Below are positions 127 through 18,251 of a stretch of 20,000 bases of DNA, in pieces; position 1 is the first letter of the stretch, and each line of letters starts with the position of its first letter. The translations under genes were made by a program, and so were the position numbers. This DNA is from Wickerhamiella versatilis. Taxonomy: Eukaryota. Below the pieces are notes generated by a model. It was given only the letters and a program-made list of their open reading frames with translations. It was not told the DNA's origin and did no database searches. Location of the stretch: the NCBI GenBank assembly GCA_030867685.1, contig JAQOWU010000008.1, positions 4,575,438 through 4,595,437 of the forward strand. The letters are read 5' to 3'.

Positions 127-1206
127 TCACTTGTTTTTCATCCATTCTAAAATAGTAGCTTTGATGGTAGCTCCGCTTTCTCCGTACTTATAGTTGTAGT
201 GGTTACCATCCAGGTAAGACAAGTTCAGGTTTGGGGTTCGCTCTCCGAGACCGTCTATCAAGATCTTAGTTTCAATGTTATCCCCATTCATCATCCAAAC
301 CTTCAATTTATCCACTGGCAGATACTGTCGATACATTTTACCGCTGATAATTCCAGGAATAAGTCGGTTGAAAACATACCATTGATATTTAAGCATTCCA
401 TGACTTGTGTCGGAATTTCTGCCCTTTGTGAGAGCCGTCAAAGCACTAGCAATGTTTGAGCCAAGTTGGTTGTTTAATGCTCCTGCATCTGCGGCGTGTA
501 GAGCTTTAAGAATATCAAGTAGCTTATCTGCGATCCATTGAGGGATACCAATCTGCACCAGCACTTCTGGGATGACGGGTATAGAGACTACTCCCATATA
601 GGAGATGGAAGCCCACTGCGCTAAAACTTGCGTAAGATTCTGCTGATTATGTACGAGATTTTTGGTCTGGTCTATCAGCGATTGGGTGGCCAGATCAAAG
701 GATGGAACTCCTACAGAAAAAATGGTCCCAATGGAGCCATTTTCCGGATGCATATCACAGTATTCTGAAGCAATAAATGGTGACCAAGCCTCTCCAAAAA
801 CAGCTACTTCCTTGTTTGGTGCCGCAGCTTCAATGACAGCACCCATATCTTCCGCCAGGTTAGGGAGACTGTAGTCCCATATGCCCCATGGATGCGCACT
901 TTTCCCGGAGCCACGCTGATCATATAATATCACGTGTAAGCCTCTATCGGCCATGTCTGCGGCAAAATCATCAAAAGTTTCAGCTGACACGGGCCATCCA
1001 CCTGTGATTATGAGTGTAGGATTTGTAGGGTCGCCATATTCGTAGTACGACACAGCTAGGCCTTGAGAATAAGTAAACTGAAGAGAGCTAGCATTCGGAA
1101 AATTGCTAGGTACATCAGTAGTAGACGAATCGTAAGGCGCTACTGTAGAGACTGTAACGCCGCCAAGCACGCCATGAACTAAGGTACACAACAAAGGCAG
1201 TATCAT
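127..1206 (-). CDS. Secreted alpha/beta-hydrolase fold protein, epoxide hydrolase/EphD-like, with a non-canonical catalytic elbow
   Basis: 359-aa ORF with a hydrophobic N-terminal signal peptide. Motifs GGWP (HGWP equivalent), YDQRGSGKS, YSLPNLAEDMGAVI, elbow GEAWS (canonical GHDWG) and a C-terminal His in LDGNHY. TATATAAA lies about 33 nt upstream. Confidence 0.85.
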   Translation of the reverse strand: MILPLLCTLVHGVLGGVTVSTVAPYDSSTTDVPSNFPNASSLQFTYSQGLAVSYYEYGDPTNPTLIITGGWPVSAETFDDFAADMADRGLHVILYDQRGSGKSAHPWGIWDYSLPNLAEDMGAVIEAAAPNKEVAVFGEAWSPFIASEYCDMHPENGSIGTIFSVGVPSFDLATQSLIDQTKNLVHNQQNLTQVLAQWASISYMGVVSIPVIPEVLVQIGIPQWIADKLLDILKALHAADAGALNNQLGSNIASALTALTKGRNSDTSHGMLKYQWYVFNRLIPGIISGKMYRQYLPVDKLKVWMMNGDNIETKILIDGLGERTPNLNLSYLDGNHYNYKYGESGATIKATILEWMKNK

Positions 1207-3163: not shown

Positions 3164-4504
3164 ATGTTGTTAACAATGATGCTCTTTCATGCCTTATTCA
3201 CTCTAGGCACTGTTCTCGGTGCTGCTATACAGAAGCGTGCTGCTCCAAGTGATGATGCGTTTTATACAGCTCCAGAAAACTTGACCAGCTATCGTCCGGG
3301 GGAGATTATCGACAGCCGCTCCGTTTTTTCATCGGTTATTCTAAGGGAGGTGACTCAAATAAAATATGCTACGACCAATACTCAGAATTCTTCTTCATAT
3401 ACGATAGCCACCGTGGCATCCCCAGATAATATTCAGTATCCGCAAAAACTTTTATCAATTCAAAATTGGCAGGACAGTGCCGGCAAAAATTGCGTGCCCA
3501 GTTATGGTTTGGTCACCGGTCTCCTTGGACCGGGCGGATTTACTACCTCGATTATCGATATGCCCATAGTTCTTGAATGGGCCTTATCAAAAGGCTACTA
3601 TGTTGTTGTTCCTGACCATGAAGGGCCCAATGGCGAGTTCATAGTGGGGCACACAGAGGGTCAAGCGGGACTAGATGGGATAAGAGCAGCTATCTCTTAC
3701 CTTAATCTCTCTGAAGACACGGACACGGCACTTTATGGTTATAATGGCGGCTCTCATGCCACAGCTTGGATGGCTAATTTACATGAGTTTTATGCTCCTG
3801 AGATCAACATTGTCGGATCAGTGACTGGAGGAACAGTTATTGACATGTATGCGATGTACAACAAGATTGCTGGTACCGTTTTCTCGGGGTTCATATTTCC
3901 TGTTGTTAATGCTTTTGCTGACGCTTATCCTGAACAGGGAGCACAGGTGCTGTCGCACTTCAATGGTATAGCCAACGCTACACTTTCCTATGCAGCCCAA
4001 GATAATGTATGCATCATCGGAGACCTACTTGGAGGCGCTTTCCGTAATATTGGCGATGAAAGTGATCTTGATGATTTTTTGTCCTTCCCTCCTTTAGTTG
4101 ATATATTCAATCGAGAAAGCTTACTCAACAACGTGTCAAGTCTTGCAGTATCGGCTCCAAAATTCCCTCGGTTTAACTATCATGCGCTTTTAGACGAGAT
4201 TGTGCCTTATCCAGCAGATGAGATGTACACCGAGCAGCAGTGTGCTCTTGGAGCAGATATCCAGTTCCAAACATTTGACCTGGGTGGGCATGCTACCACA
4301 ATGTTATTTGGTCTTCCTGGTGCTCTACAATTCTTGGAACAAGCATTTCTTGGGGAAGTTCCTAAAGTACAATGTGGTTCTCAAAATCCTCAGTCGGTCA
4401 ATATGAATTCATCAAATGTAGATGAAGTGATTGGTAAGGACACTGCCGATCGCATCCGTGCATTTAACGGCAAGAACACTACGTTGGGAATGATTTCCTG
4501 GTAA
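3164..4504 (+). CDS. Secretory lipase family (LIP; CalA / lactone esterase-like) protein with catalytic Ser replaced by Asn
   Basis: Signal peptide plus KR (Kex2-type) site. Motifs DDAFYTAP, QDSA..NCVPSY, VVPDHEGP, AGLDGIRAA, GYNGG (canonical GYSGG), YAPEINIVG, HALLDEIVPY (Asp) and GGHATT (His). The C-terminus is CalA-like (PKVQCG...DEVIG). The true start may be Met5 or Met6. Confidence 0.93.
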   Translation: MLLTMMLFHALFTLGTVLGAAIQKRAAPSDDAFYTAPENLTSYRPGEIIDSRSVFSSVILREVTQIKYATTNTQNSSSYTIATVASPDNIQYPQKLLSIQNWQDSAGKNCVPSYGLVTGLLGPGGFTTSIIDMPIVLEWALSKGYYVVVPDHEGPNGEFIVGHTEGQAGLDGIRAAISYLNLSEDTDTALYGYNGGSHATAWMANLHEFYAPEINIVGSVTGGTVIDMYAMYNKIAGTVFSGFIFPVVNAFADAYPEQGAQVLSHFNGIANATLSYAAQDNVCIIGDLLGGAFRNIGDESDLDDFLSFPPLVDIFNRESLLNNVSSLAVSAPKFPRFNYHALLDEIVPYPADEMYTEQQCALGADIQFQTFDLGGHATTMLFGLPGALQFLEQAFLGEVPKVQCGSQNPQSVNMNSSNVDEVIGKDTADRIRAFNGKNTTLGMISW

Positions 4505-4647
4505 AGATGACTAGGTGAACTTGTGCAGGTGAATAAATTGTCGTAGATGAGTTCTCGTTTTCCATAATATACTCCAGTTTACTACTCGAGACTGGTTGGA
4601 GAATGTAAGATAGCCCACTAATGCCATGATAAGGGCAACGAGATGAC

Positions 4648-6705: not shown

Positions 6706-8588
6706 TCAGCATATACAACACTCATCGTGAGAGTCAGCAACCTCCACAGATTGAATTGGTTCTGAGGAACTCGCAGCAGACACTGGTGAAATATAACTGG
6801 GTTTATTTATGACTTCAGAAACCGCATTTACCATCTCACAAAGGGGGTTTTTGTCATAATCGAAAGGCCAGGTGTCTTGTGACACTATTTTTGAAATTTT
6901 GTCCATGGATTTGTTATCAAAACCAGTTATTTCGCTATCCATACAATTCGATTGCGTTTTCAAAAGAATTGCCAGATAAACTGCAATTGCACTGCGAACT
7001 GAAAGGCTTAAACTGCCAATTTCCTGGGTACAAGTGTCAAATAACAGCTGTGCAGCATTAGTGAGCTTTTGCAGTGAAGCCCGTCTTAATTCCAACGAAC
7101 AGAACACATTAAACGCTGCAAACGAATGAACAGCTATAACTGTATGGTAATATTCTGCCCTCAACTCGACCCAAGGAAAGGAGCACAGGATGCTTTGAAT
7201 ATCTCCTTTGCCAGAAGGGTTTATATTCCACAAATCTTCTTCTATGTGAAACCGCCAGGTCTCAAGCCGCTGATCGAGTCTAGTCATATCCTCAACGATT
7301 TGTTGCAATGACACCCTTCTTGTGCCTACTGAGCCGAGAAGTTTACACACATCATCATAAATAAGATGGATTCCAGTAAAATAATCGAAATTTTGAACCA
7401 CAATCACTGAAAGCGTCTTCTTTGATAGACTACTCACTCCTTTATCGGACAAAATAGGTTTAATCGATAAATGAATACCAAATGAGTAGTTGATAGCGGT
7501 TAATAATAACCATACATACTCACGGCGTCCAGATTCAGCTTTAGAATACTTTGAGTTTTCCTCCTCGCTGTCTAACCCAAGGCTTCTAGCCATAGCCACC
7601 ACTGTCTCTAGGAAATGCGGTACTGAATGAACAGAGCTAAAAACAGTCATCGTAAAAAGTAGTGACAAACACAACCTCACCTCTAGAAACCCGGGGTCGC
7701 TAAGGGTCAGAACCCGGAGTGTTTCCAGTGCTTTAAGATACGCACAGGCCTCTTGCGACCTCACTACGTATGGAACATCACTCTTTGATTCAGCTCTTAT
7801 TCCGTTTATGCCAATTATAAATATTGTAGAGAAAATTCCATTTCTGATATGTTCAGGATAAGAATTAATGCCAAGTGCAAGGTCCTCTGGTGAAATTAGG
7901 ACATGGAAAAAATTATCTTTCATTTTCATATAGATGTCAAGACACCTTTCAAAAATTATACTGTCATAAGTGACTATACTTGGAATATTGAGTAACTGTG
8001 AAAAGGATAACTGATAAGCTCTCCACATTGCTCGAGAATAATCATTAAGACGCTGCCACAACAATAGATCTCCTGTGGCTTGCAAGAGATGTGCTACATC
8101 CCCCGGTGTCAAAATTGAGCAGAATATATTTGGCGCATAAGATATATTGCTTAACGACATGTCGACAGTCTGTTGCTTAAAGCAGAAAAGTCCTTCATTG
8201 AATTCTCTTTTTTGAACGTATTTTCAGTGTCTGTACTAGGAGGTAACTCCGTATCTGGACGACTTCGACTTATCGCGTTTGGACTATGTTCATGTTCATG
8301 TTCATGCCCATGCTGAGTTGAGACTGAGACTAGTCTGGGAGGGCATATCGGTTCGTCATGATGGTCTCTTTCATATTTATTTTCCAAGTTCTCAATTCTC
8401 AACATGAGGGCAGTCCATAATTCTCTGGCAGGTGTCCGCGAGTGACTTCGATAAACGCATCGCAGTCCAGAACTGGAACAGTTTTCACATGCCGGAGAAG
8501 CTGCATCACAGCGTGCTTTACGTTGACGGCAACTCTCACACGCTATCGATGCACGTACTCGGCTTCTTTTTTCAACTCCCCCAGACAT
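6706..8588 (-). CDS. Zn(II)2Cys6 fungal transcription factor split into two frames (frameshift at about 8151-8223)
   Basis: 8588-8151 encodes CESCRQRKARCDAASPACENCSSSGLRC plus a coiled coil (RIENLE). 8160-6706 encodes a fungal TF middle-homology-like region (VAMARSLGLD...GRREYVWLL...SIKPIL). The two frames overlap and no convincing intron is present. Confidence 0.85.
8286..8312. repeat. (ATGTTC)3 hexanucleotide microsatellite encoding HGHEHEHEH in the transcription factor linker
   Basis: Directly visible as atgttc atgttc atgttc atgccc atg. Confidence 0.7.
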
Positions 8589-9095
8589 ACCAACAGGGCG
8601 AATCGATGATAAGTAATTATGTAGTCATACGTCACAGACTAGACTCTCCGTGAGAGATACATGATAGCGTAGATTGTTGTGGATCGTTGGAAAATACACG
8701 AGTATTTGACAGTTTGACAAAACCAAGCAAACCAGCTTACTAGCAATGTACCTTTCAAGTGAACTTCGTCGTTAGAGTTAGAGATAATGGCTTTAATTGT
8801 AGTAGTATGGGTTTGCAAATTGTTTAGAGAGCATAAGCAGGGGTGTTGGAGTGATCTATAAGGATCACTTGCTATTTTATAGGAGGAAGAGACGAGAAAG
8901 TGCTATTATGGGGTCTTTTCTTTTGAAGGTATTCGCGAATATACTGAACCATGACGGCATGTTCTAACTCTATAGTGACTGGTTGCCTCGTTATCATTAA
9001 TAACCTAACCCCTTGGATATAGTTTTCCGTTCGGCGCTTACCCAGTGTAAGTGGCTTAGGAGCCAGACCCAGATCTACAACCCTAGTAGTGATTG

Positions 9096-9116
9096 GCGGC
9101 TAACCTTTTCCGAAAC
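9096..9116. promoter_or_regulatory. Putative Zn2Cys6 binding site CGG-N10-CCG (GCGGCtaacCTTTTCCGAAAC)
   Basis: Inverted CGG triplets in the divergent TF/transporter promoter. A near-identical element lies at 13122-13141. Confidence 0.6.
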
Positions 9117-9225
9117 TATGACCTATAGTTACTTTTGGGTATATGTGAAGCTTAACAGCATATTATAATATATCACAATCATAATAATATAGTTATCTAT
9201 ATGTTAAGACTGCTTTCTCAATATC

Positions 9226-9231
9226 TATAAA
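9226..9231 (+). promoter_or_regulatory. Candidate TATA box of the MFS gene
   Basis: TATAAA 130 nt upstream of the ATG at 9356. Confidence 0.4.
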
Positions 9232-9280
9232 GTACGTGCGTGTCATTGACTGGTACTCCATCTGATCATATGACTAATAT

Positions 9281-9298
9281 ATGCCTCTCATACCCTAG
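9281..9298 (+). promoter_or_regulatory. Candidate uORF (MPLIP*) in the HOL1-like 5' leader
   Basis: ATG CCT CTC ATA CCC TAG lies between the TATA box and the main ATG. It resembles the short regulatory uORF of yeast HOL1 (MLLLPS*). Confidence 0.45.
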
Positions 9299-9355
9299 CT
9301 TTATCAGGTCAGTAGACTAGACTAAGCTGCACTGTCTAACAAGTATCAGGTTGCT

Positions 9356-11023
9356 ATGGAAGATATCAAGGAAGAAAAGAAGATTCCAGGTACATACCTT
9401 TTGTTTAAAAAATGTGATGATAAGGACGATGGCAGCGAACTCGAGCGTGATGGTGATATTATTCTATATCCCCAGCCATCAGCTTCACCAAATGACCCTC
9501 TAAGAATGCCGCGCTGGAAGAAGTATATTCAGCTTTCAATTATATTGTGGTATAAGGGGTTCATTGGAGCAATGTCAAATGTTCTCAGCGTCCAGAGCAA
9601 TGGATTTCTTGTTGAACACCCAACTTGGAATTACAACGACGTGAATATAGCAACAGCCATTACCTTTGTGGGTATCGGATGGGCTGGAGCTGCTCTAAAT
9701 GGGCCTATTCCCCATATTTGGGGGGTTAGACTGGAATACCTCTTGTGTACTTGCTACGGAATAGTGGGTTCGGCTTGGATGGCCAACATTAATTCTCGGG
9801 GCGATATAATAGGGTCACAGCTTTTTATTGGAATGTCTACAAGCGCGGCTGAGGGCCTTAGTCAATTGTCGATTTCCCAGATATTTTATCAGCATGAACT
9901 AGCGGACTTCATTGCATTTTATATTGTCAGTTTGGCGGCAGGTACCTATCTTGGACCTCTCGTCGGAGGGTACATAGTACAGTACCCTGGCTGGAAATGG
10001 ATAGGCTGGCACGGATTGATTTTTTCTTGTGTGACGCTTTTGCTTATATTCTTTTTGCTTGAAGAAACATCTTTCGACCGGGTCGTGTACAACCAGCAGC
10101 ATCGCAAACTGAGTGCATCTGAAGAAGAATGTATCAATGATTCAGAAGAGAATACATCCGAGAAACAAGAAGGAACTACCAAGGTGGAACCAAGGAAAGC
10201 ATCATTTTATGATATGGAGTTGAGAAAATCCTACTGGAAGCGAATCGCTATATTAACCCCAGCGGCAACAATAAAGGGATACGGGTTCAGACAGTATTTT
10301 GAACGACTGGTTTTGCAATGTAGAGTCTTTCTGTTTCCCGCGACCTGGTTTGCCGGTCTTCACTGGGGTTGGGGAATAGGGTGGCTAAGTTTCTATTTGA
10401 CCACTGAGGAAGAAGTGTGGATTCTTCCACCATGGAATTATGGCAGTACTGCCTTAGGAATAATGATGGTTCCAGTATTCATTGGTGCAGTTTTAGGGTG
10501 CCTATATTCGCTTTATGCCACAGACTGGTTTGTAAAGTATGTTGCCAAGCGTAACCACGGTATTTTGGAGTCGGAATCACGGCTTTGGTGTATGATGCCA
10601 TCGATTATATTTGGACCTCTAGGATTACTTTTATTTGGAGCAGGAACAGAGTACCGATGGTCCTGGCCAGTACCTTACGTGGGTCTCGCGTTTATTGGAG
10701 CAAACTTTGGGATCACAAGTGATATATCAATGACTTATCTTGTCGACTGCTACCCAGCTATGTCACTTGAGTCTGTTAATGGGATTTCAATGATATATAC
10801 TGTGATTGCATTGATTTTGTGCTTCGTAGTTGAACCATGGTTTAATATTGGCCAGATGAATACCTACATATCGTGCGCAGTTGTCCAATTCTTTTTATGT
10901 TGTCTTATAGTTCCAATGATATACACAGGTAATTTTTGGAGACGTAAGACAATGGGCTTATATTATCGCTTCATAGAACTTAGAGATACGATGCATGGTA
11001 AATGCACAAAGATTACTGAATAA
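9356..11023 (+). CDS. HOL1: MFS transporter of the HOL1 family (histidinol/polyamine/amine importer-like)
   Basis: 555 aa with about 12 TM segments. Hol1-like motifs GDIILYPQPSASPNDPL..PRWKK, SQLFIGMS..AAEG..QLSISQIFYQH, GTYLGPLVGGYI, EETSFDR and ESESRLW. This is a homolog call; orthology is not established. Confidence 0.88.
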   Translation: MEDIKEEKKIPGTYLLFKKCDDKDDGSELERDGDIILYPQPSASPNDPLRMPRWKKYIQLSIILWYKGFIGAMSNVLSVQSNGFLVEHPTWNYNDVNIATAITFVGIGWAGAALNGPIPHIWGVRLEYLLCTCYGIVGSAWMANINSRGDIIGSQLFIGMSTSAAEGLSQLSISQIFYQHELADFIAFYIVSLAAGTYLGPLVGGYIVQYPGWKWIGWHGLIFSCVTLLLIFFLLEETSFDRVVYNQQHRKLSASEEECINDSEENTSEKQEGTTKVEPRKASFYDMELRKSYWKRIAILTPAATIKGYGFRQYFERLVLQCRVFLFPATWFAGLHWGWGIGWLSFYLTTEEEVWILPPWNYGSTALGIMMVPVFIGAVLGCLYSLYATDWFVKYVAKRNHGILESESRLWCMMPSIIFGPLGLLLFGAGTEYRWSWPVPYVGLAFIGANFGITSDISMTYLVDCYPAMSLESVNGISMIYTVIALILCFVVEPWFNIGQMNTYISCAVVQFFLCCLIVPMIYTGNFWRRKTMGLYYRFIELRDTMHGKCTKITE

Positions 11024-11333
11024 TTACATAGATACTGTTTAAATATGCTAACGCGGAATAATGGCTTCAATCAACTAACTAGGATTATTACTATTGTATG
11101 ATACAAAGTGTCTCATTTATGGTTGAATTTCTGTGACAATTGATTGTCTGTCATGCAAAATCTGAGGCAACTCTCCAGCTTGTGCCAGTTGGTAGATCTT
11201 GAGCAGATGTTCAAGTTCTTGCTATAATAAATAGAAACATCAAACGTATGCATTTATTGGATTTTTGTTTTGCTTTTAGAGAAGTTACTAGATAAAAAAA
11301 TCCTAGTGTCTTTCATATATGATTTTCATTTCC

Positions 11334-12989
11334 TCATATAAGCTCAAACTCCTCACTAGGGGCGGAATACACACACTTTCCCGCAAGCCAAGTTTGTTGA
11401 ACCTGCCAGTTTTGAAAGTTTTGAGACTTAATATCTACTATTTTCTCAGGGAATATCACAAAATCTGCCGATTTTTTTACTGTAATACTTCCAAGCTCTG
11501 AGCCCCAGCCGCAAATATCAGCCGGAGCTTGGGTATAGGCATAAATTGCCTCATCAAAGCTCAGTGCATTCTCGATATACCATGCCTCCCCTTGCTTCTC
11601 CCTTAAAACCGCAGAGCTCAACTGAGATACTGGGTTCTCATAAGCTGTTGGCCAATCACTACCCAGTACAACTTTTGCACCACTTGAGAGCAATGTTTGC
11701 CATGCGTAACTGAGAGGAAGTCTTTGCTGTCCAAGACGCTGGGATTGGTAGCACCCTGCAGTGGCATGATTAGGTTGCACCGAAGCAACAATATTTCCTT
11801 CGCTGAAACGAGTAATCTGGTCCCGTTTAATCACTTCAATGTGTTCTATCCTGTTTGGAAGTGGGCTCATGGTTTTTGAGGAGCTATTTTCGAAAGCATT
11901 CAGTGCCATTCTCACACCCCTGTCACCAATAGCATGAATAGATACAGGGAATCCAGAATAGTTTGCTGCGGCGACAAGGTGCTCAAGTTCTTCCTGTCCT
12001 GTAATGGGCTCGCCTCTGAAGTGATCCACACATCTATCACTATATTCTTCGTCAAGCGCTGCGGTATAGTTTGAAAGTGTACCATCAACAACTAGCTTGA
12101 TGTATCCAAACTCAAATTTGTGATTGTTTTCTTTTGACACACCATCAAGATATTTTTTGTCACTCCCTCTTAGTTCTTGAAAATTTACTCTGTGACGCTG
12201 GTCGGGTGAAATTAGCATTAGACCAAACCATATGCGCATGTAAATAGGTTCCTTTTCACGAATTAGTTCATTATACAGATCGAAGTTGGGATTCATATCG
12301 TGCACGCCAGTCACACCGATACTGTTAAAATGAGTAATGATGTCTCTTATTTCACTTGTGGTCATTTTATATGCCTTTTTGAAGACTTCGTTATCTTCTA
12401 CGAGACTTATAGCTGTTTCCTTCAACTCACCTGTTAAACACCCTTTAGAGTCGTGAACCACCTCACCTCCTTCTGGCGCCTCTGTTTCGTCATTTATATC
12501 GAGAAGATTTAGTGCCGCAGTATTCAGCCATAACGAATGAAAGTCTATATCGCGTAATGCCATAGGCACATTGACTGTAGCAGCATCGACATCTTCACGA
12601 GAAGGAAGAACTTGTTCCTCCTTGTCATCTAAAATAGACAGATCCCACCTTCCACCGAATAGCCATTCCCCCTCCTTTTTAGTTTTTGCAACATTCCTGA
12701 TGAGTCCCAGCCATTCAGATTTCTTTGTAGAACCAAATAGATCAACGCCTTTGGCTAATTCTATTCCACCGATGAGATGGGTATGTGAGTCAATTATTCC
12801 TGGAAGGATTGATGCCCCCTGAACGTCCAAAACTTGGGTGTGGCTCGTGCCCTTGAGAGATTCTATATAAGCATTGGTGCCAACAGCCAGGAAACGCCCG
12901 TCCTTTACAGCGAAGGCTTCTGCTCGAGGTTTTGAAGGATCACTAGTTCGTACATCCCCGTTAATCACCACGAGATCTGGAACAAACAT
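11334..12989 (-). CDS. Metal-dependent amidohydrolase, YtcJ-like / Amidohydro_3 family (related to N-substituted formamide deformylase)
   Basis: 551 aa, intronless. N-terminus NGDVRT.DPSKPRAEAFAVKDGRF, then PGIIDSHTH (HxH), HSLWLNTAAL, TGELKE, KLVVDG, IHAIGD, RIEHIE, GSDWP, YT...A and GSITVKKSADFVI. Metal-ligand motifs appear intact. Confidence 0.93.
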   Translation of the reverse strand: MFVPDLVVINGDVRTSDPSKPRAEAFAVKDGRFLAVGTNAYIESLKGTSHTQVLDVQGASILPGIIDSHTHLIGGIELAKGVDLFGSTKKSEWLGLIRNVAKTKKEGEWLFGGRWDLSILDDKEEQVLPSREDVDAATVNVPMALRDIDFHSLWLNTAALNLLDINDETEAPEGGEVVHDSKGCLTGELKETAISLVEDNEVFKKAYKMTTSEIRDIITHFNSIGVTGVHDMNPNFDLYNELIREKEPIYMRIWFGLMLISPDQRHRVNFQELRGSDKKYLDGVSKENNHKFEFGYIKLVVDGTLSNYTAALDEEYSDRCVDHFRGEPITGQEELEHLVAAANYSGFPVSIHAIGDRGVRMALNAFENSSSKTMSPLPNRIEHIEVIKRDQITRFSEGNIVASVQPNHATAGCYQSQRLGQQRLPLSYAWQTLLSSGAKVVLGSDWPTAYENPVSQLSSAVLREKQGEAWYIENALSFDEAIYAYTQAPADICGWGSELGSITVKKSADFVIFPEKIVDIKSQNFQNWQVQQTWLAGKCVYSAPSEEFELI

Positions 12990-13099
12990 TTACGTGCAAG
13001 CGCAAGTTCAAGTACAATTTTAAACGGACCAAAGACTTGACAGTTATGCTTACGAACTACACTTTATTTCTCCAAGGACACCGGATCTTAATTCCTAGG

Positions 13100-13106
13100 T
13101 GAGTCA
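13100..13106. promoter_or_regulatory. Gcn4/AP-1 consensus site TGAGTCA upstream of the amidohydrolase
   Basis: Perfect TGA(G/C)TCA heptamer about 110 nt upstream of the ATG at 12989. Confidence 0.45.
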
Positions 13107-13121
13107 GCATACTGGGTACAA

Positions 13122-13141
13122 GCGGCATACTTTTCCGAAAC
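13122..13141. promoter_or_regulatory. Putative Zn2Cys6 binding site CGG-N9-CCG (GCGGCataCTTTTCCGAAAC)
   Basis: Shares GCGGC and the 12-mer CTTTTCCGAAAC with the element at 9096-9116. Confidence 0.6.
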
Positions 13142-13739
13142 CAAAGCCGGATTATGTAAGATAATGTGCCTTGTATGGGAATGAGCTTGTCAGTCAGTGC
13201 ACAATGTAAATCACTTCTCTAGCGGCTGGGGTCATGCTATCTGAGACTAGTTGGACGGTGAAAGATAGTTTATCTGGTTCCCAGGAATTATGAGGGCAAG
13301 CAAGCCTCATTCAAGCATAGTATGATAGAGGAGGTCAAGACTGTTTTCTCAGTGAATACTATATACTCTGTAGCACCGCCCCAGCTCAGATACATATAGA
13401 TTATTAGTACATTGGTACTGGTAGTTATAGTCTACAGAAATACAGTATCGTATTGCATATGTTATCGACCTCGTGATAATCTTGACCGAGGCCCTTTCTC
13501 GGGCAAGGGTGGTTAGGCTATGTTTTGGGAACTACCATCGTCGCTTGGGTTGGCTGGTTTATCAAACCCGATTGATGTGAAGTATCCCTGGAGCTTAGTG
13601 AATAAGAATCATGGCTTGAGAACATTAATTTTTAGCGGCTGAAGGGATTTAATTACCTGAGACTAGTAATATTAGCATTTTGTAACTAGGTGTTGAAGAA
13701 ACAAAGTCCACGCAAGTTCTTCAACTATATTATATTTTT

Positions 13740-14587
13740 TTAAATGGAACACGCAAATATTTAAACGTTATTACATTCCACTGTGATAAAATCATCGTCT
13801 TCAAGCCCTGTCTTGTGCTTTATTTCTTTATAAGCTAAATCCAGAATATCTCTGCTCTGAGGATTTGTTTTTTCCAGTTATGATACGGTCCCGAATTCTG
13901 TAATGAACTTGTTAGGTCAATAAGCTCGGCATTTGTTCAAACAAGTTCAAACGTCTCCTGCGGACGTAGACAGTCATTATCATTTATAAACCGGAATTCT
14001 TGCGTAAACTGACTAGGTAGGAGCTTAAAAGAAGGATACAATCATGTATAATCTCCAATCCCTTATCCCAATATGGAGCTAACTCGCCATAAGCAAGGTT
14101 GTAAATAACTTTTCGTGCTTCTGTCAGTTCCGTTCCAGTTTCTTTCTGGAACACTGACGGTAAGTAACAGGACCAAATAGCTAGGACTCTATTGGGTTTC
14201 AAAATCTTGTGTGCTATATTAAGGAAGTTTGGGTGAGTCAAGTAGTGAAATGCCTTGGCCACTATCAGTAAATCAACGCTATGTGGTGTAAACATGCGAT
14301 TCAGTTTAGTGTTTTCTCCAACGAGGAATTCAATGCTCCTAGGTAAGTCTCTCTGGTCACATGCTTGTTTAATCATTACCTCAGATCTGCCAATACCGCA
14401 TACCTTGTCTGCCATCGGCGCAAGGACTCTGGTAGCCTGGCCTGTTTCACATGCCACATCAACCACCACACTTGGCTTGACGTCACCAATATAACTGGCT
14501 AAGTGTTCATAAAGCGAGTGTAGGTAATCTGGTCGAGATTCTTGGTATCCACTTGCATCATTAATTCGGGTCCGAGAATGATGACAT
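13740..14587 (-). pseudogene. Crg1/Tmt1-like SAM-dependent methyltransferase pseudogene
   Basis: The ATG at 14587 gives MSSFSDPN*; a 1-nt shift continues DASGYQESRPDY...VVDVACETGQAT...SVDLLIVAKAFHY...LKPNRVLAIWS...LAPYWDKG. Further shifts and stops lead to GPYHNWKK / NPQSRDILD...ITVECNNV*IFA. At least 3 frameshifts and 2 internal stops; motif I is degenerate. Confidence 0.85.
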
Positions 14588-14812: not shown

Positions 14813-15169
14813 TTATCTCACCTGGACACTAATTGACTTGTATTCCCAGGTTGAATTTTGGAAGCTTTGTCCGTAGATAAGTTTTAATTCACCGGTACCT
14901 GGAGTTTGGCCGATGAATGTATATATTGTGTGTCCACCGCTGCCTATTTGGCCAGCGTTGTTATCCTCCGGTTGATACCATTCATTGACCAGTATAAGAT
15001 TGCTGGGTAGCTGCTCGATCATCCACGAATACCCGGTGGTAGGGTTGGCTTCGAGCTCCAGATCATTTGTCTTACCTAGTGTGGCGTTAAACACCTCTGG
15101 TGTCGATATTCCCATGGAAGTTTGTAGTAGAAGAGTAAGAGTTATCACGGACGCAAATTTAGAAAGCAT
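14813..15169 (-). CDS. Secreted chagasin-family cysteine protease inhibitor (MEROPS I42)
   Basis: 118 aa with a signal peptide. Hallmark loops LEANPTTGYSW and GSGG, followed by F.....G.GELKLIY. Confidence 0.9.
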   Translation of the reverse strand: MLSKFASVITLTLLLQTSMGISTPEVFNATLGKTNDLELEANPTTGYSWMIEQLPSNLILVNEWYQPEDNNAGQIGSGGHTIYTFIGQTPGTGELKLIYGQSFQNSTWEYKSISVQVR

Positions 15170-15210: not shown

Positions 15211-16476
15211 CGGGGTCAGACAAAAATAGCATAGCTAAAAAAGGTTGACTTTTGTTTGGCTTAGGGTTTTCCTCGTACAATGCTTGACACAGGCAGGTAA
15301 GTTCCTCTTAGGGAAATATTGTATATAGTCGGTATAGCTTGAATTGTAACGTCTGCATACATAAATATAGAGGAGAATATTTGCTTTCTTCTGGCGTATC
15401 CTGACCGATAATAAGATGCCCACTTTAGGCGGCCATACTGCCCAATATCTCTCTTACCCAGGTCGGACATTGCATAATAGCCCACTATTCTGATATTATG
15501 ATGATGAGATTTAGTAATGCTTAAGTAAGGAGGTGTGGGTCCATATCTCGGTATAACGGGAACAATTCGGAAACCAGACAATGCTAGCAATACAGTTTCA
15601 ATACATCCTAGACATAATTATGCTCATAAGCAAGACTAAAGCATTTGAACCCAAGTAGCCTCATCTTATTTGTCACTAGGAACTATCGAGTAAACTTTTC
15701 GTCATATTTTTCGAGACAATGCAAAATAGTCCACTCCTGGTTATCTTGAGTGTTTATTATTTTGTGAGCACTCTATAATGATGCGAACATTCCTGCCACG
15801 CTCTAAGTTAACCGCAGCTGTGGTACAAGCACACAAAATAGATCATCTGGGCAAACAATGCCTACGAATAACCTAAGTTACGTTCTTCTTGACGCAATCA
15901 TTTAGTGCTTGTTTAAACATTGTTTGCCACTGATAGGTGGAGCTGTGAGTTACACTTACTATCATACTAGCTCTGTATTCTCTGCAAGGAGGGTTAAGTG
16001 CTGTATTTAAACATCACCAAAAGCTTGTCATACCTTTAAATTCGCTAAAATTAACAGTCTCTTCTATAGGAACCTAGCTGATTCCGAGCACTAGTAGAGC
16101 TCTTTACTCAATAATATTTCGCACTCGACATGAGTTGGTACCACTAAGAACGATCATTCCACAAGTGCGAATCATTTAGCTCGTTAGCTTGAATATTAGA
16201 ATCACGGTAATATTTATTAGGATAAAAAAAGTAACTATATATCTGGAATGTTATTCATCAATCCACCCCCGATCTTAACATTTTGCTGTAGCTGAAACAC
16301 GGCCATGGAGTAGTAATAAGATTCAGGGTCCGACGATCCCTTCTATAATAAAAAATGAGCACAGTATAAGAGAATGAAGAAACTTGAACCGTACCAAGCT
16401 AAGTTTCAAGGACAAAGTTTACAAGCTCTACGACGTATATTTGGGTACGGTGACCAAGAGAAACAAGAATACCCGC

Positions 16477-16754
16477 GAATGCGAGGCAATTGGATTCATA
16501 CTACCATTACAATCCCTCAAGACCGTAATATTCCTCTTTCCGAACATTAAATTACATCGTATAGTCGTAAACGAAATGATCGGCACGCCCCACACGTTTT
16601 GTTGATTAGTGATGTGAATACGAGGCAGTTGCGTTCATACTACCATTAACATCACTCAAGACCGTAATATTCCTCTTTCCGAACATTAAATTACATCGTG
16701 TAGTCGTAAACGAAATGATGGGCACACCCCAGACGTTGTGTTGATTAGTGATGC
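16477..16754. repeat. Tandem direct repeat, 2 x 139 bp, about 91% identical
   Basis: 16477-16615 versus 16616-16754; 13 substitutions counted by eye, no indels. Confidence 0.92.
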
Positions 16755-17025
16755 GAGGGAATGTGGGCCGAATAGAACCTACTTTAAACTATTCAGAATT
16801 ATAGCAAACCCCTTTTTGAAAACCTATGTCTAGCAACATGAACTCTTTTTGACCAAAAGAACCAATAATCTTAGTCTTAGGGAGTTTTCATAACGGTAAT
16901 GCATATGGGTTAGGTTCCCTTCGCATGAATTATGCAATGTCGGATGGCCCTCGCGGATGGGAATGATATAAAGCGTCAACCATCTCCCATTATTCTTCAG
17001 AGCACTTTATACTATGATAGGCACC

Positions 17026-17727
17026 ATGAAAATAGCTGCCACACTTTCAACGATTCTTCAGCTTGTGTCTGCAGGGATCACAACAAGTTCTATCGAACCG
17101 ATTACTAGCCCGTCTCCGACTGCTGTGATTAGCGTGACAACGGCCGACCTGGGTAAGCCTTTTCACACCTTTCCAGGACAGGCTGCGAACCCAAAATGTC
17201 AGTGTAATCAGGAAAATGGCGTTGCTGAAATTGCTGATGGTCTCGAAAAGGTTTTAGATAACCTTAAAAGATCAGTGGAGGCTCCCTTCGAGATATTCAA
17301 CTTGCCTCTATTGATCAGTAATGTCCAAGGAATATTTGAAAATTTAAATGATCAAGGTAAAGATATCCGATGTTTTGATTTCAAAGCACAGTCTTATATC
17401 TTCGGCGCTCTTGATCAAGTACTCGATATTCTACACCAACTTTTGGAAGGCGTTAACTCTTCTGGTTTAGTTCAGCTCGCGAATCAAACTGTTCCTGGAT
17501 TACAAGTTATCAATGATGGGATTTCTGGCCTGGTTGTTAGCCTTAATGGTGGCCTGACTTTACAACCCTGCTGCATTTTTGAGGCCAAGTTCCAGGAAAG
17601 CAAGAAATCTTTGGATGAGTGGAATACTATTATCGACTCTTTCAACGCTTTTTCTGGTGAACATGTCCCACATGTCTCAAACTTTTCTATAAATGATAAC
17701 ATCATTCACAACTGTAGCAACAATTAG
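17026..17727 (+). CDS. Uncharacterised secreted protein (Ser/Thr/Pro-rich N-terminus, helical domain with 6 Cys)
   Basis: Signal peptide MKIAATLSTILQLVSAG, with the ATG at 17026 in ACC-ATG context (alternative ATG at 17014). TATAAA at 16967-16972. Cys pattern CxC, C, CC, C. Confidence 0.8.
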   Translation: MKIAATLSTILQLVSAGITTSSIEPITSPSPTAVISVTTADLGKPFHTFPGQAANPKCQCNQENGVAEIADGLEKVLDNLKRSVEAPFEIFNLPLLISNVQGIFENLNDQGKDIRCFDFKAQSYIFGALDQVLDILHQLLEGVNSSGLVQLANQTVPGLQVINDGISGLVVSLNGGLTLQPCCIFEAKFQESKKSLDEWNTIIDSFNAFSGEHVPHVSNFSINDNIIHNCSNN

Positions 17728-18251
17728 CTAGCATTCACTCGCTATTAGTCAAATATGCTGCGTTAAGAATATTTTTCAGATATGTGCTAACCTCTGTATA
17801 TGACATAAATTGGAACACACTCTTCTGACATGATGTGTGGAACCTTCGACCCCTGTATGCTACACCAGATAATATCAAATGTTCTCTGACAGCTCAGAAG
17901 TGCATCATTTTAGGACCAAGATTTTGTTATGTTTTTTAGGTAAATCCGATTTGGAATAATAAGAAACCCCCCCCAATTATTAGTTATTTGTATGCAGCTA
18001 CAGTTGGATTCCTTAGAATCCTTCCAATGCGGTTTTTATAGAAACTATAAAGCCCTTTAAGTTAAGACACAGCTTTCAATGATTATTAGAGCTTCATTAT
18101 ATGAAACCATTACGGGTCAAAAATTCCGTCAAACAATAGCCATTATATCTAAGATTAAGCAAGTCTAAGTAGTGGAGTTGAGGTCGCTATAATGCAAGAT
18201 AGCCCACTGATGATGTCTGAAGTTCGAAGTGTGAGCAATGAGTGTTTTTTG

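Follow-up and report, generated by a model that had tools for sequence, protein, structure and literature searches.

Zn2Cys6 transcription factors (TFs) usually act as homodimers that recognise paired CGG triplets, and the fission yeast factor Pho7 is a monomeric Zn2Cys6 factor that binds an asymmetric 12-nucleotide (nt) site with one anchoring CGG and specific contacts in the extended flank (PMC6265462, excerpted text). Gal4 and most other zinc-cluster TFs assayed also bind DNA that is dense in CGG half-sites (PMC10250231, excerpted text). Here we describe a candidate site of this general kind in a 20,000-nt stretch of contig JAQOWU010000008.1 from the yeast Wickerhamiella versatilis (hereafter the window, meaning the whole stretch analysed). 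The element is a composite of the pentamer GCGGC and a 12-mer, CTTTTCCGAAAC, found once in the divergent promoter between a Zn2Cys6 TF gene and an MFS transporter gene and once in the promoter of a nearby amidohydrolase gene. Our preferred though tentative reading is that the composite could be a plausible Zn2Cys6 upstream site of this TF-transporter-amidohydrolase cluster, one that the cluster's own factor would read asymmetrically through the CGG triplets.

A composite element in two promoters of one gene cluster

The window is AT-rich (GC 0.38-0.45) and its open reading frames (ORFs) are long, intron-free and of fungal type. The TF, MFS transporter and amidohydrolase genes are adjacent to one another, and their Pfam assignments bear out the calls made in an earlier, sequence-only reading of this DNA. 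The same reading had reported four strings, the 12-mer, GCGGC, an 8-mer and the half-site TTTTCCG, every one of which is present where it was placed. Genes and strings are listed below.

6706..8588, minus strand: Zn2Cys6 TF gene, with a Pfam Zn_clus domain at 8588..8151 and an out-of-frame ORF of 484 amino acids (aa) at 8160..6706
9356..11023, plus strand: MFS_1 transporter, 555 aa (Pfam)
11334..12989, minus strand: Amidohydro_3 (YtcJ-like) metal hydrolase, 551 aa (Pfam)
9096-9100, plus strand: GCGGC of the divergent TF/MFS promoter, CGG at 9097-9099, separated from the 12-mer by the 4-nt spacer TAAC
9105-9116, plus strand: 12-mer CTTTTCCGAAAC, MFS/TF promoter copy, exact match, CCG at 9110-9112
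13122-13126, plus strand: GCGGC of the amidohydrolase promoter, CGG at 13123-13125, separated from the 12-mer by the 3-nt spacer ATA
13130-13141, plus strand: 12-mer CTTTTCCGAAAC, amidohydrolase promoter copy, exact match, CCG at 13135-13137
9039-9046 (plus), 13111-13118 (minus) and 11660-11667 (plus, within the amidohydrolase coding region): 8-mer TACCCAGT, exact match
9023-9029, plus strand: TTTTCCG half-site, one of six copies in the window, three of which are coding

The composite GCGGC-N4/N3-CTTTTCCGAAAC, a 21-base motif as named, reads CGG-N10-CCG in the MFS/TF promoter and CGG-N9-CCG in the amidohydrolase promoter. This confirms the inverted CGG triplets proposed by the sequence-only reading (CGG 9097/CCG 9110 and CGG 13123/CCG 13135). 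No third copy of CTTTTCCGAAAC exists in the window with up to one mismatch allowed. The first 12-mer stands 240-251 nt upstream of the start codon (ATG) of MFS and, in the other direction, 517-528 nt ahead of that of the TF, the second 141-152 nt upstream of the amidohydrolase ATG, and its orientation toward the amidohydrolase gene is inverted relative to that toward the MFS gene. Positions 141-251 nt upstream of the two structural-gene ATGs would suit a yeast upstream element. Short ORFs running across the motifs are all at most 75 aa from stop to stop, and those over the motif itself have no usable starts.

CGG and CCG triplets are distributed differently in the two promoters compared here, 8589-9355 (TF/MFS, 767 nt) and 12990-13983 (amidohydrolase). 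The TF/MFS promoter contains six, four of them clustered at 9027-9112; its density, 7.8 per kb, is below the window-wide 13.3 per kb. The amidohydrolase promoter has six within 13081-13148, the densest intergenic triplet cluster of the window. Reading the pairs by eye, we find that the inverted N9/N10 dyad is the sole close dyad type (within ~20 nt) that is similarly spaced in both promoters. Should the TF act on both promoters through a CGG dyad, no candidate other than this pair is available. The TTTTCCG at 9023 and the CGG at 9032 pair up as an everted CCG-N2-CGG, for which the amidohydrolase promoter offers no equivalent. Other short elements flank the composite: a CCAAT box on the opposite strand (GATTGGC, 9090-9096) abuts GCGGC in the MFS promoter, and TGAGTCA, which we take to be a Gcn4/AP-1-type heptamer, stands in the amidohydrolase promoter at 13100-13106, 16 nt ahead of GCGGC. 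GATAA reaches a density of 6.5-7.0 per kb in both promoters compared with 3.7 per kb window-wide. The heptamer, the CCAAT box and the GATAA density hint at nitrogen or general amino-acid control, which is suggestive only.

The cluster is retained in relatives. Near-identical DNA occurs in at least 20 sequencing runs from 11 studies; most carry the label of a food or food-fermentation metagenome, and among the runs listed none is recorded as RNA. In a ~4% divergent lineage, an 8446-nt contig spans TF-MFS and a 5950-nt contig spans MFS through the amidohydrolase promoter. Farther away, the homologues P0180 (TF, 30% identity), P0131 (MFS, 69%) and P0002 (amidohydrolase, 73%) are each found on exactly one contig, of 19,033 nt. 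The three genes are therefore almost certainly clustered in that relative as well, as judged from matching contig records, the contig itself being unread. A TF gene adjoining transporter and enzyme genes, in an arrangement kept in relatives, is the layout of a fungal catabolic cluster that has its own pathway-specific TF.

The DNA-reading part of the TF is likewise conserved. Its six cysteines together with R21, R23, K24 and R26 are kept in all nine aligned family members, and the N-terminal DNA-binding domain is far better conserved than the remainder of the protein, as seen when the intact TF of other assemblies (P0122) is compared with P0180. In solved Zn2Cys6 complexes a lysine at the position of K24 contacts a guanine of the CGG triplet (PMC6265462, excerpted text).

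The strings, the gene content, the conserved clustering and the conserved DNA-reading residues are observed; that the element is bound, that the genes are co-induced and which factor does the binding are inferred. The composite would act as an upstream activating-type element with a single copy in each of the two promoters, and the cluster's own Zn2Cys6 factor would be its most likely reader, through the CGG and CCG triplets. Binding would be asymmetric, either with one zinc cluster anchored on CGG and extended contacts in the flank, or as loose half-site binding. We favour an asymmetric mode over a rigid Gal4/Put3-type dimer site because spacer length varies by one base between the two sites and because only the left part is retained in a distant relative. 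The Pho7 monomer footprint and the half-site density of Gal4-type binding serve as analogies for such a mode. If true, this would define a recognition site for a zinc-cluster factor that is as yet uncharacterised, from a food-associated yeast that has been poorly sampled, and would join the transporter and the bacterial-type amidohydrolase as a single inducible unit, a result useful for annotation and conceptually ordinary.

Chance, partial conservation and other readers

Several observations weigh against a site dedicated to this cluster, and we set them out here together with the alternatives. The alternative that survives best, and a real possibility, is a chance repeat without function as a unit, with GCGGC nearby by accident and any co-regulation of the cluster exerted through other sequences. 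The expectation for this particular 12-mer is 0.08, a value that answers the wrong question because any repeat could have been picked. The 20-kb window contains 92 repeated 12-mers, corresponding to ~34 independent pairs of at least 12 nt after overlapping words and a tandem duplication have been collapsed. Among the 10 intergenic stretches of at least 100 nt (an unsupported 153-aa ORF at 1603-2064 was treated as non-coding), 12 of the 45 pairs have an exact 12-mer in common, compared with a summed uniform expectation of 3.66. Dinucleotide-preserving shuffles give this promoter pair some shared 12-mer in 507 of 5000 cases. The best Smith-Waterman alignment of the two promoters falls on a stretch other than the motif, and its score of 27 was equalled in 124 of 1000 shuffles. 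The motif pair with 20-nt flanks scores 26, as do or exceed 5 of 12 other intergenic repeats, one of them identical at 20 of 22 positions.

Other results are harder to ascribe to chance. A shared 12-mer accompanied by an exact 5-mer 1-8 nt away, with a shift of at most 1, appeared in 40 of 5000 shuffles. Shuffling each promoter 3000 times gave inverted CGG-N9/10-CCG dyads in 4.1% and 7.2% of cases, a product of 0.29%, which rises to 6.3% when any spacer of 2-12 is allowed in each promoter. Both nominally significant tests, the 12-mer with its 5-mer and the CGG dyad, were defined post hoc with the motif already seen. A chance repeat would also have had to fall in the one promoter pair that is a natural choice a priori, next to the conserved cluster TF, and within reach of a 45-nt block that is conserved in a relative and overlaps the composite.

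The co-regulated unit that the sequence-only reading had proposed is made more likely by the conserved TF-MFS-amidohydrolase clustering. Of the strings, the composite alone is nominally unusual (post hoc p ~0.01), which is suggestive; the bare 12-mer and the 8-mer are at chance level. The 8-mer TACCCAGT had been put forward as a second sign of co-regulation. It is present in both promoters, and the match is meaningless because 30 positions of one promoter hold an 8-mer that is also present in the other; we rejected it as a regulatory element. The methodological lesson is that in AT-rich yeast intergenic DNA the identity of a 12-mer between two promoters is not by itself evidence of regulation.

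The spacers of the composite are unequal (N10 versus N9), at odds with the constant spacer of homodimer sites; Reece and Ptashne reportedly described spacing as a fixed determinant in 1993. The caution in the sequence-only reading that spacers one nucleotide apart may point to a monomeric or asymmetric site was well placed. Unequal spacers also favour a chance repeat, as does the fate of the right half of the 12-mer in a distant relative.

The sequence-only reading had suggested footprinting in orthologous promoters, and two groups of relatives bear on this. The ~4% divergent lineage (runs X16, X17 and X19) differs at 137 letters over 8108-11368 and at 159 over 10016-14000. Among the 40 of 341 substitution places listed, nearly all before 8905, none falls in the composites, which proves nothing on conservation, and among the 12 of 15 indels listed none touches them, the nearest being at 9058, 9292 and 13040. 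A more distant relative is represented by a 3771-nt contig of run X16, with 36 differences in the coding part 12693-12879 (~81% identity). After an unaligned skip of 212 nt this contig matches one stretch of the amidohydrolase promoter:

13092-13136: conserved promoter block, 45 nt, matched by the more distant relative at the 80% threshold

The match is known at this threshold and not letter by letter. A count of two X16 contigs at 13107 bears out that the 3771-nt contig covers the block, and the block takes in TGAGTCA, ACTGGGTA, GCGGC and CTTTTCC. The match stops at 13136, inside the 12-mer and before the G of CCG, where the contig continues TTACCC. By eye, its 30 loose letters are colinear with 13137-13166 and agree at 17 of 30 positions, including the terminal AGATAATG; read in this way, the distant relative lacks CCG and GAAAC and has no CGG or CCG in the next 30 nt. 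The match supports constraint on the left part of the composite and appears to argue against treating the 12-mer as one unit and against conservation of the CGG-N9-CCG dyad.

The TF itself is interrupted in the window. A run of six T at 8208-8213 (A6 on the coding strand) breaks its frame after 145 aa into frames of 145 and 484 aa. Other assemblies have one more A and encode the 627-aa protein P0122, which is 100% identical over the 484-aa ORF. The extra base (T7) is found in all three runs of the ~4% divergent lineage, and T6 in one independent run, of low depth, that belongs to the lineage of the window itself; the frameshift may be a real truncating polymorphism that leaves a 145-aa protein with the DNA-binding domain only, rather than an assembly error. 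In the ~4% divergent lineage (X16, X17) an 18-nt insertion at 8295 lengthens a His-Glu repeat of the TF, corresponding to the 633-aa P0123.

A second alternative, less probable and still serious, is that the element is real and belongs to a different factor of wider use, one that would bind the TTTCCGAA/CGGAAAA core and serve several unrelated genes. CGGAAAA, the reverse complement of the core, is presumably an Rgt1-type site. The window contains six copies of TTTCCGAA compared with 0.74 expected, and none of 200 shuffles reaches six. One copy is coding (1094) and five are intergenic, 140-530 nt upstream of ATGs, namely those of MFS/TF, the amidohydrolase, a chagasin-family inhibitor and, twice, the gene at 17014. 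The copies upstream of these two other, unrelated genes are the following:

15566..15573, minus strand: further TTTCCGAA copy, ~400 nt upstream of the chagasin-family inhibitor gene
16477..16753, plus strand: tandem duplication with a 139-bp unit, 2.0 copies and 91% matches, TTTCCGAA in each unit (16537, 16676), 340-480 nt upstream of the 17014 gene

These additional copies are without an upstream GCGGC, as a general factor would allow. Their number is small: only ~2 independent extra promoter copies remain because two of the five define the motif and two represent one duplication. TTCCGAA alone is not enriched either (6 versus 2.13 expected, 9 of 200 shuffles), and the analysis tied no known factor to the TTTCCGAA 8-mer.

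A centromeric origin carries next to no probability. Cep3, one of the CBF3 subunits, belongs to the Zn2Cys6 proteins. The motif has the 9-mer TTTCCGAAA, the core of CDEIII, in common with the CDEIII of Saccharomyces cerevisiae CEN3 (PMC11601294, excerpted text), but two copies lie 4 kb apart with others in the 20 kb, both stand in promoters of expressed-type genes, and the DNA 5' of each is GC-containing with CCAAT and GCGGC rather than CDEI and an AT-rich CDEII (~80 bp). We rejected this reading and regard the identity with CDEIII as a sequence coincidence, because CDEI and CDEII are both lacking and the motif is present in several copies, where a point centromere has one such core per chromosome. 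Among the matches listed, literature hits to TTTCCGAAA comprise the S. cerevisiae centromere element and unrelated primers only.

The factor family, the enzyme and the neighbourhood

An exhaustive, profile-free search with the TF returned 470 proteins at E <=0.001 and only 13 at <=1e-30, the best being P0179 (49% identity) and P0180 (30%). A CaaX-like C-terminus, a tail of the prenylation type, is present in 17 of 19 family members examined (window 6706-6720, minus strand; P0122, P0123, P0179-P0195). Cys occupies position -4 in these tails and the residue at -2 is mostly I or V, as in CCIC, CIVS, CLIG, CIII and CVIL; P0188 and P0190 are the exceptions. Among the literature matches listed, none deals with prenylated zinc-cluster factors by title or abstract, which is not proof of absence in print. 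One speculative scenario, to which we give little credence, is an undescribed family of CaaX-ended Zn2Cys6 factors that, if prenylated, would be lipid-anchored at a membrane; the cluster factor would be released or activated once the MFS substrate is present, bind an asymmetric GCGGC-N3/4-CTTTTCCGAAAC element and switch on a bacterial-derived amidohydrolase. The CaaX-ended family and the apparently acquired amidohydrolase are more unusual leads than the motif.

The amidohydrolase has three close, yeast-like relatives at 97%, 73% and 64% identity; the next nearest are bacterial at ~50%, many from Acinetobacter. Homologues of the MFS transporter are fungal, at ~40%. The amidohydrolase looks like a horizontal acquisition from bacteria that may now reside within a fungal cluster. 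Scanning metagenome contigs with the enzyme returned solely bacterial-type loci at <=42% identity and no orthologous promoter. A scan of genome contigs returned solely bacterial loci at <=33% and missed the ~50% Acinetobacter relatives. Its PDB matches are uncharacterised metal-dependent hydrolases only (e.g. 3icj), and no NCBIfam model comes near its cut-off.

The remaining genes of the window are:

1206..127, minus strand: alpha/beta hydrolase (Pfam)
3164-4504, plus strand: LIP secretory lipase (Pfam)
14469..13984, minus strand: methyltransferase fragment (Pfam)
15169..14813, minus strand: chagasin-family inhibitor (I42), 118 aa (Pfam, E 8e-19)
17014-17727, plus strand: unannotated 237-aa gene
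19616, plus strand: start of arrestin_N (Pfam)

The inhibitor at 14813-15169 (minus strand) has a hydrophobic, signal-peptide-like N-terminus. The chagasin family (I42) is mainly protozoan and prokaryotic, and the inhibitor gene may possibly be another acquired gene.

Two further repeats were observed. The strongest short intergenic repeat of the window, above the motif pair, is 4602-4623 versus 18191-18212 (20 of 22 positions identical, score 34, core AAGATAGCCCACT). A 13-mer, TATAGTTACTTTT, lies at 9124-9136, 8 nt past the 12-mer of the MFS promoter, and its reverse complement is found at 16227-16239 upstream of the 17014 gene; as for other repeats, this recurrence is probably due to chance.

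Comparison with known zinc-cluster sites

With Gal4/Put3/Ppr1-type sites the composite has in common inverted CGG triplets 9-10 nt apart, located upstream of catabolic genes that adjoin a Zn2Cys6 gene, and both the Cys6 cluster and the basic residues are conserved in the TF. It differs in that the identical part is the AT-rich flank of one triplet instead of a symmetric pair of half-sites. Moreover, the spacer varies, the CCG is missing, on our reading, in one relative, and the TF is at most a putative dimer. Point-centromere CDEIII resembles the motif in the TTTCCGAAA 9-mer, whereas CDEI and CDEII are absent here and several copies stand in promoters. The binding of half-site-dense DNA finds a parallel in the six triplets at 13081-13148 of the amidohydrolase promoter but not in the triplet-poor TF/MFS promoter (7.8 versus 13.3 per kb).

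Pho7 offers a parallel for an asymmetric site, with differences in detail. Its consensus, 5'-TCG(G/C)(A/T)xxTTxAA (PMC6265462, excerpted text), is not matched by the reverse complement found here, TCGGAAAAG followed by GTT or TAT, in which positions 8-9 are AG. The motif falls outside the Pho7 site family because the consensus requires TT where the motif has AG. The TF is not supported as a Pho7 orthologue and may, by reading, have a short coiled-coil after its zinc cluster. Like Pho7 site 2 of pho1, the reverse complement of the 12-mer starts TCGGAAA after GTT (PMC6265462, excerpted text). The identity of all 12 bases around one triplet at both sites gives the predicted pattern of a single CGG with an extended asymmetric flank, and if our preferred reading of the composite is true, the element belongs to an already well-known kind.

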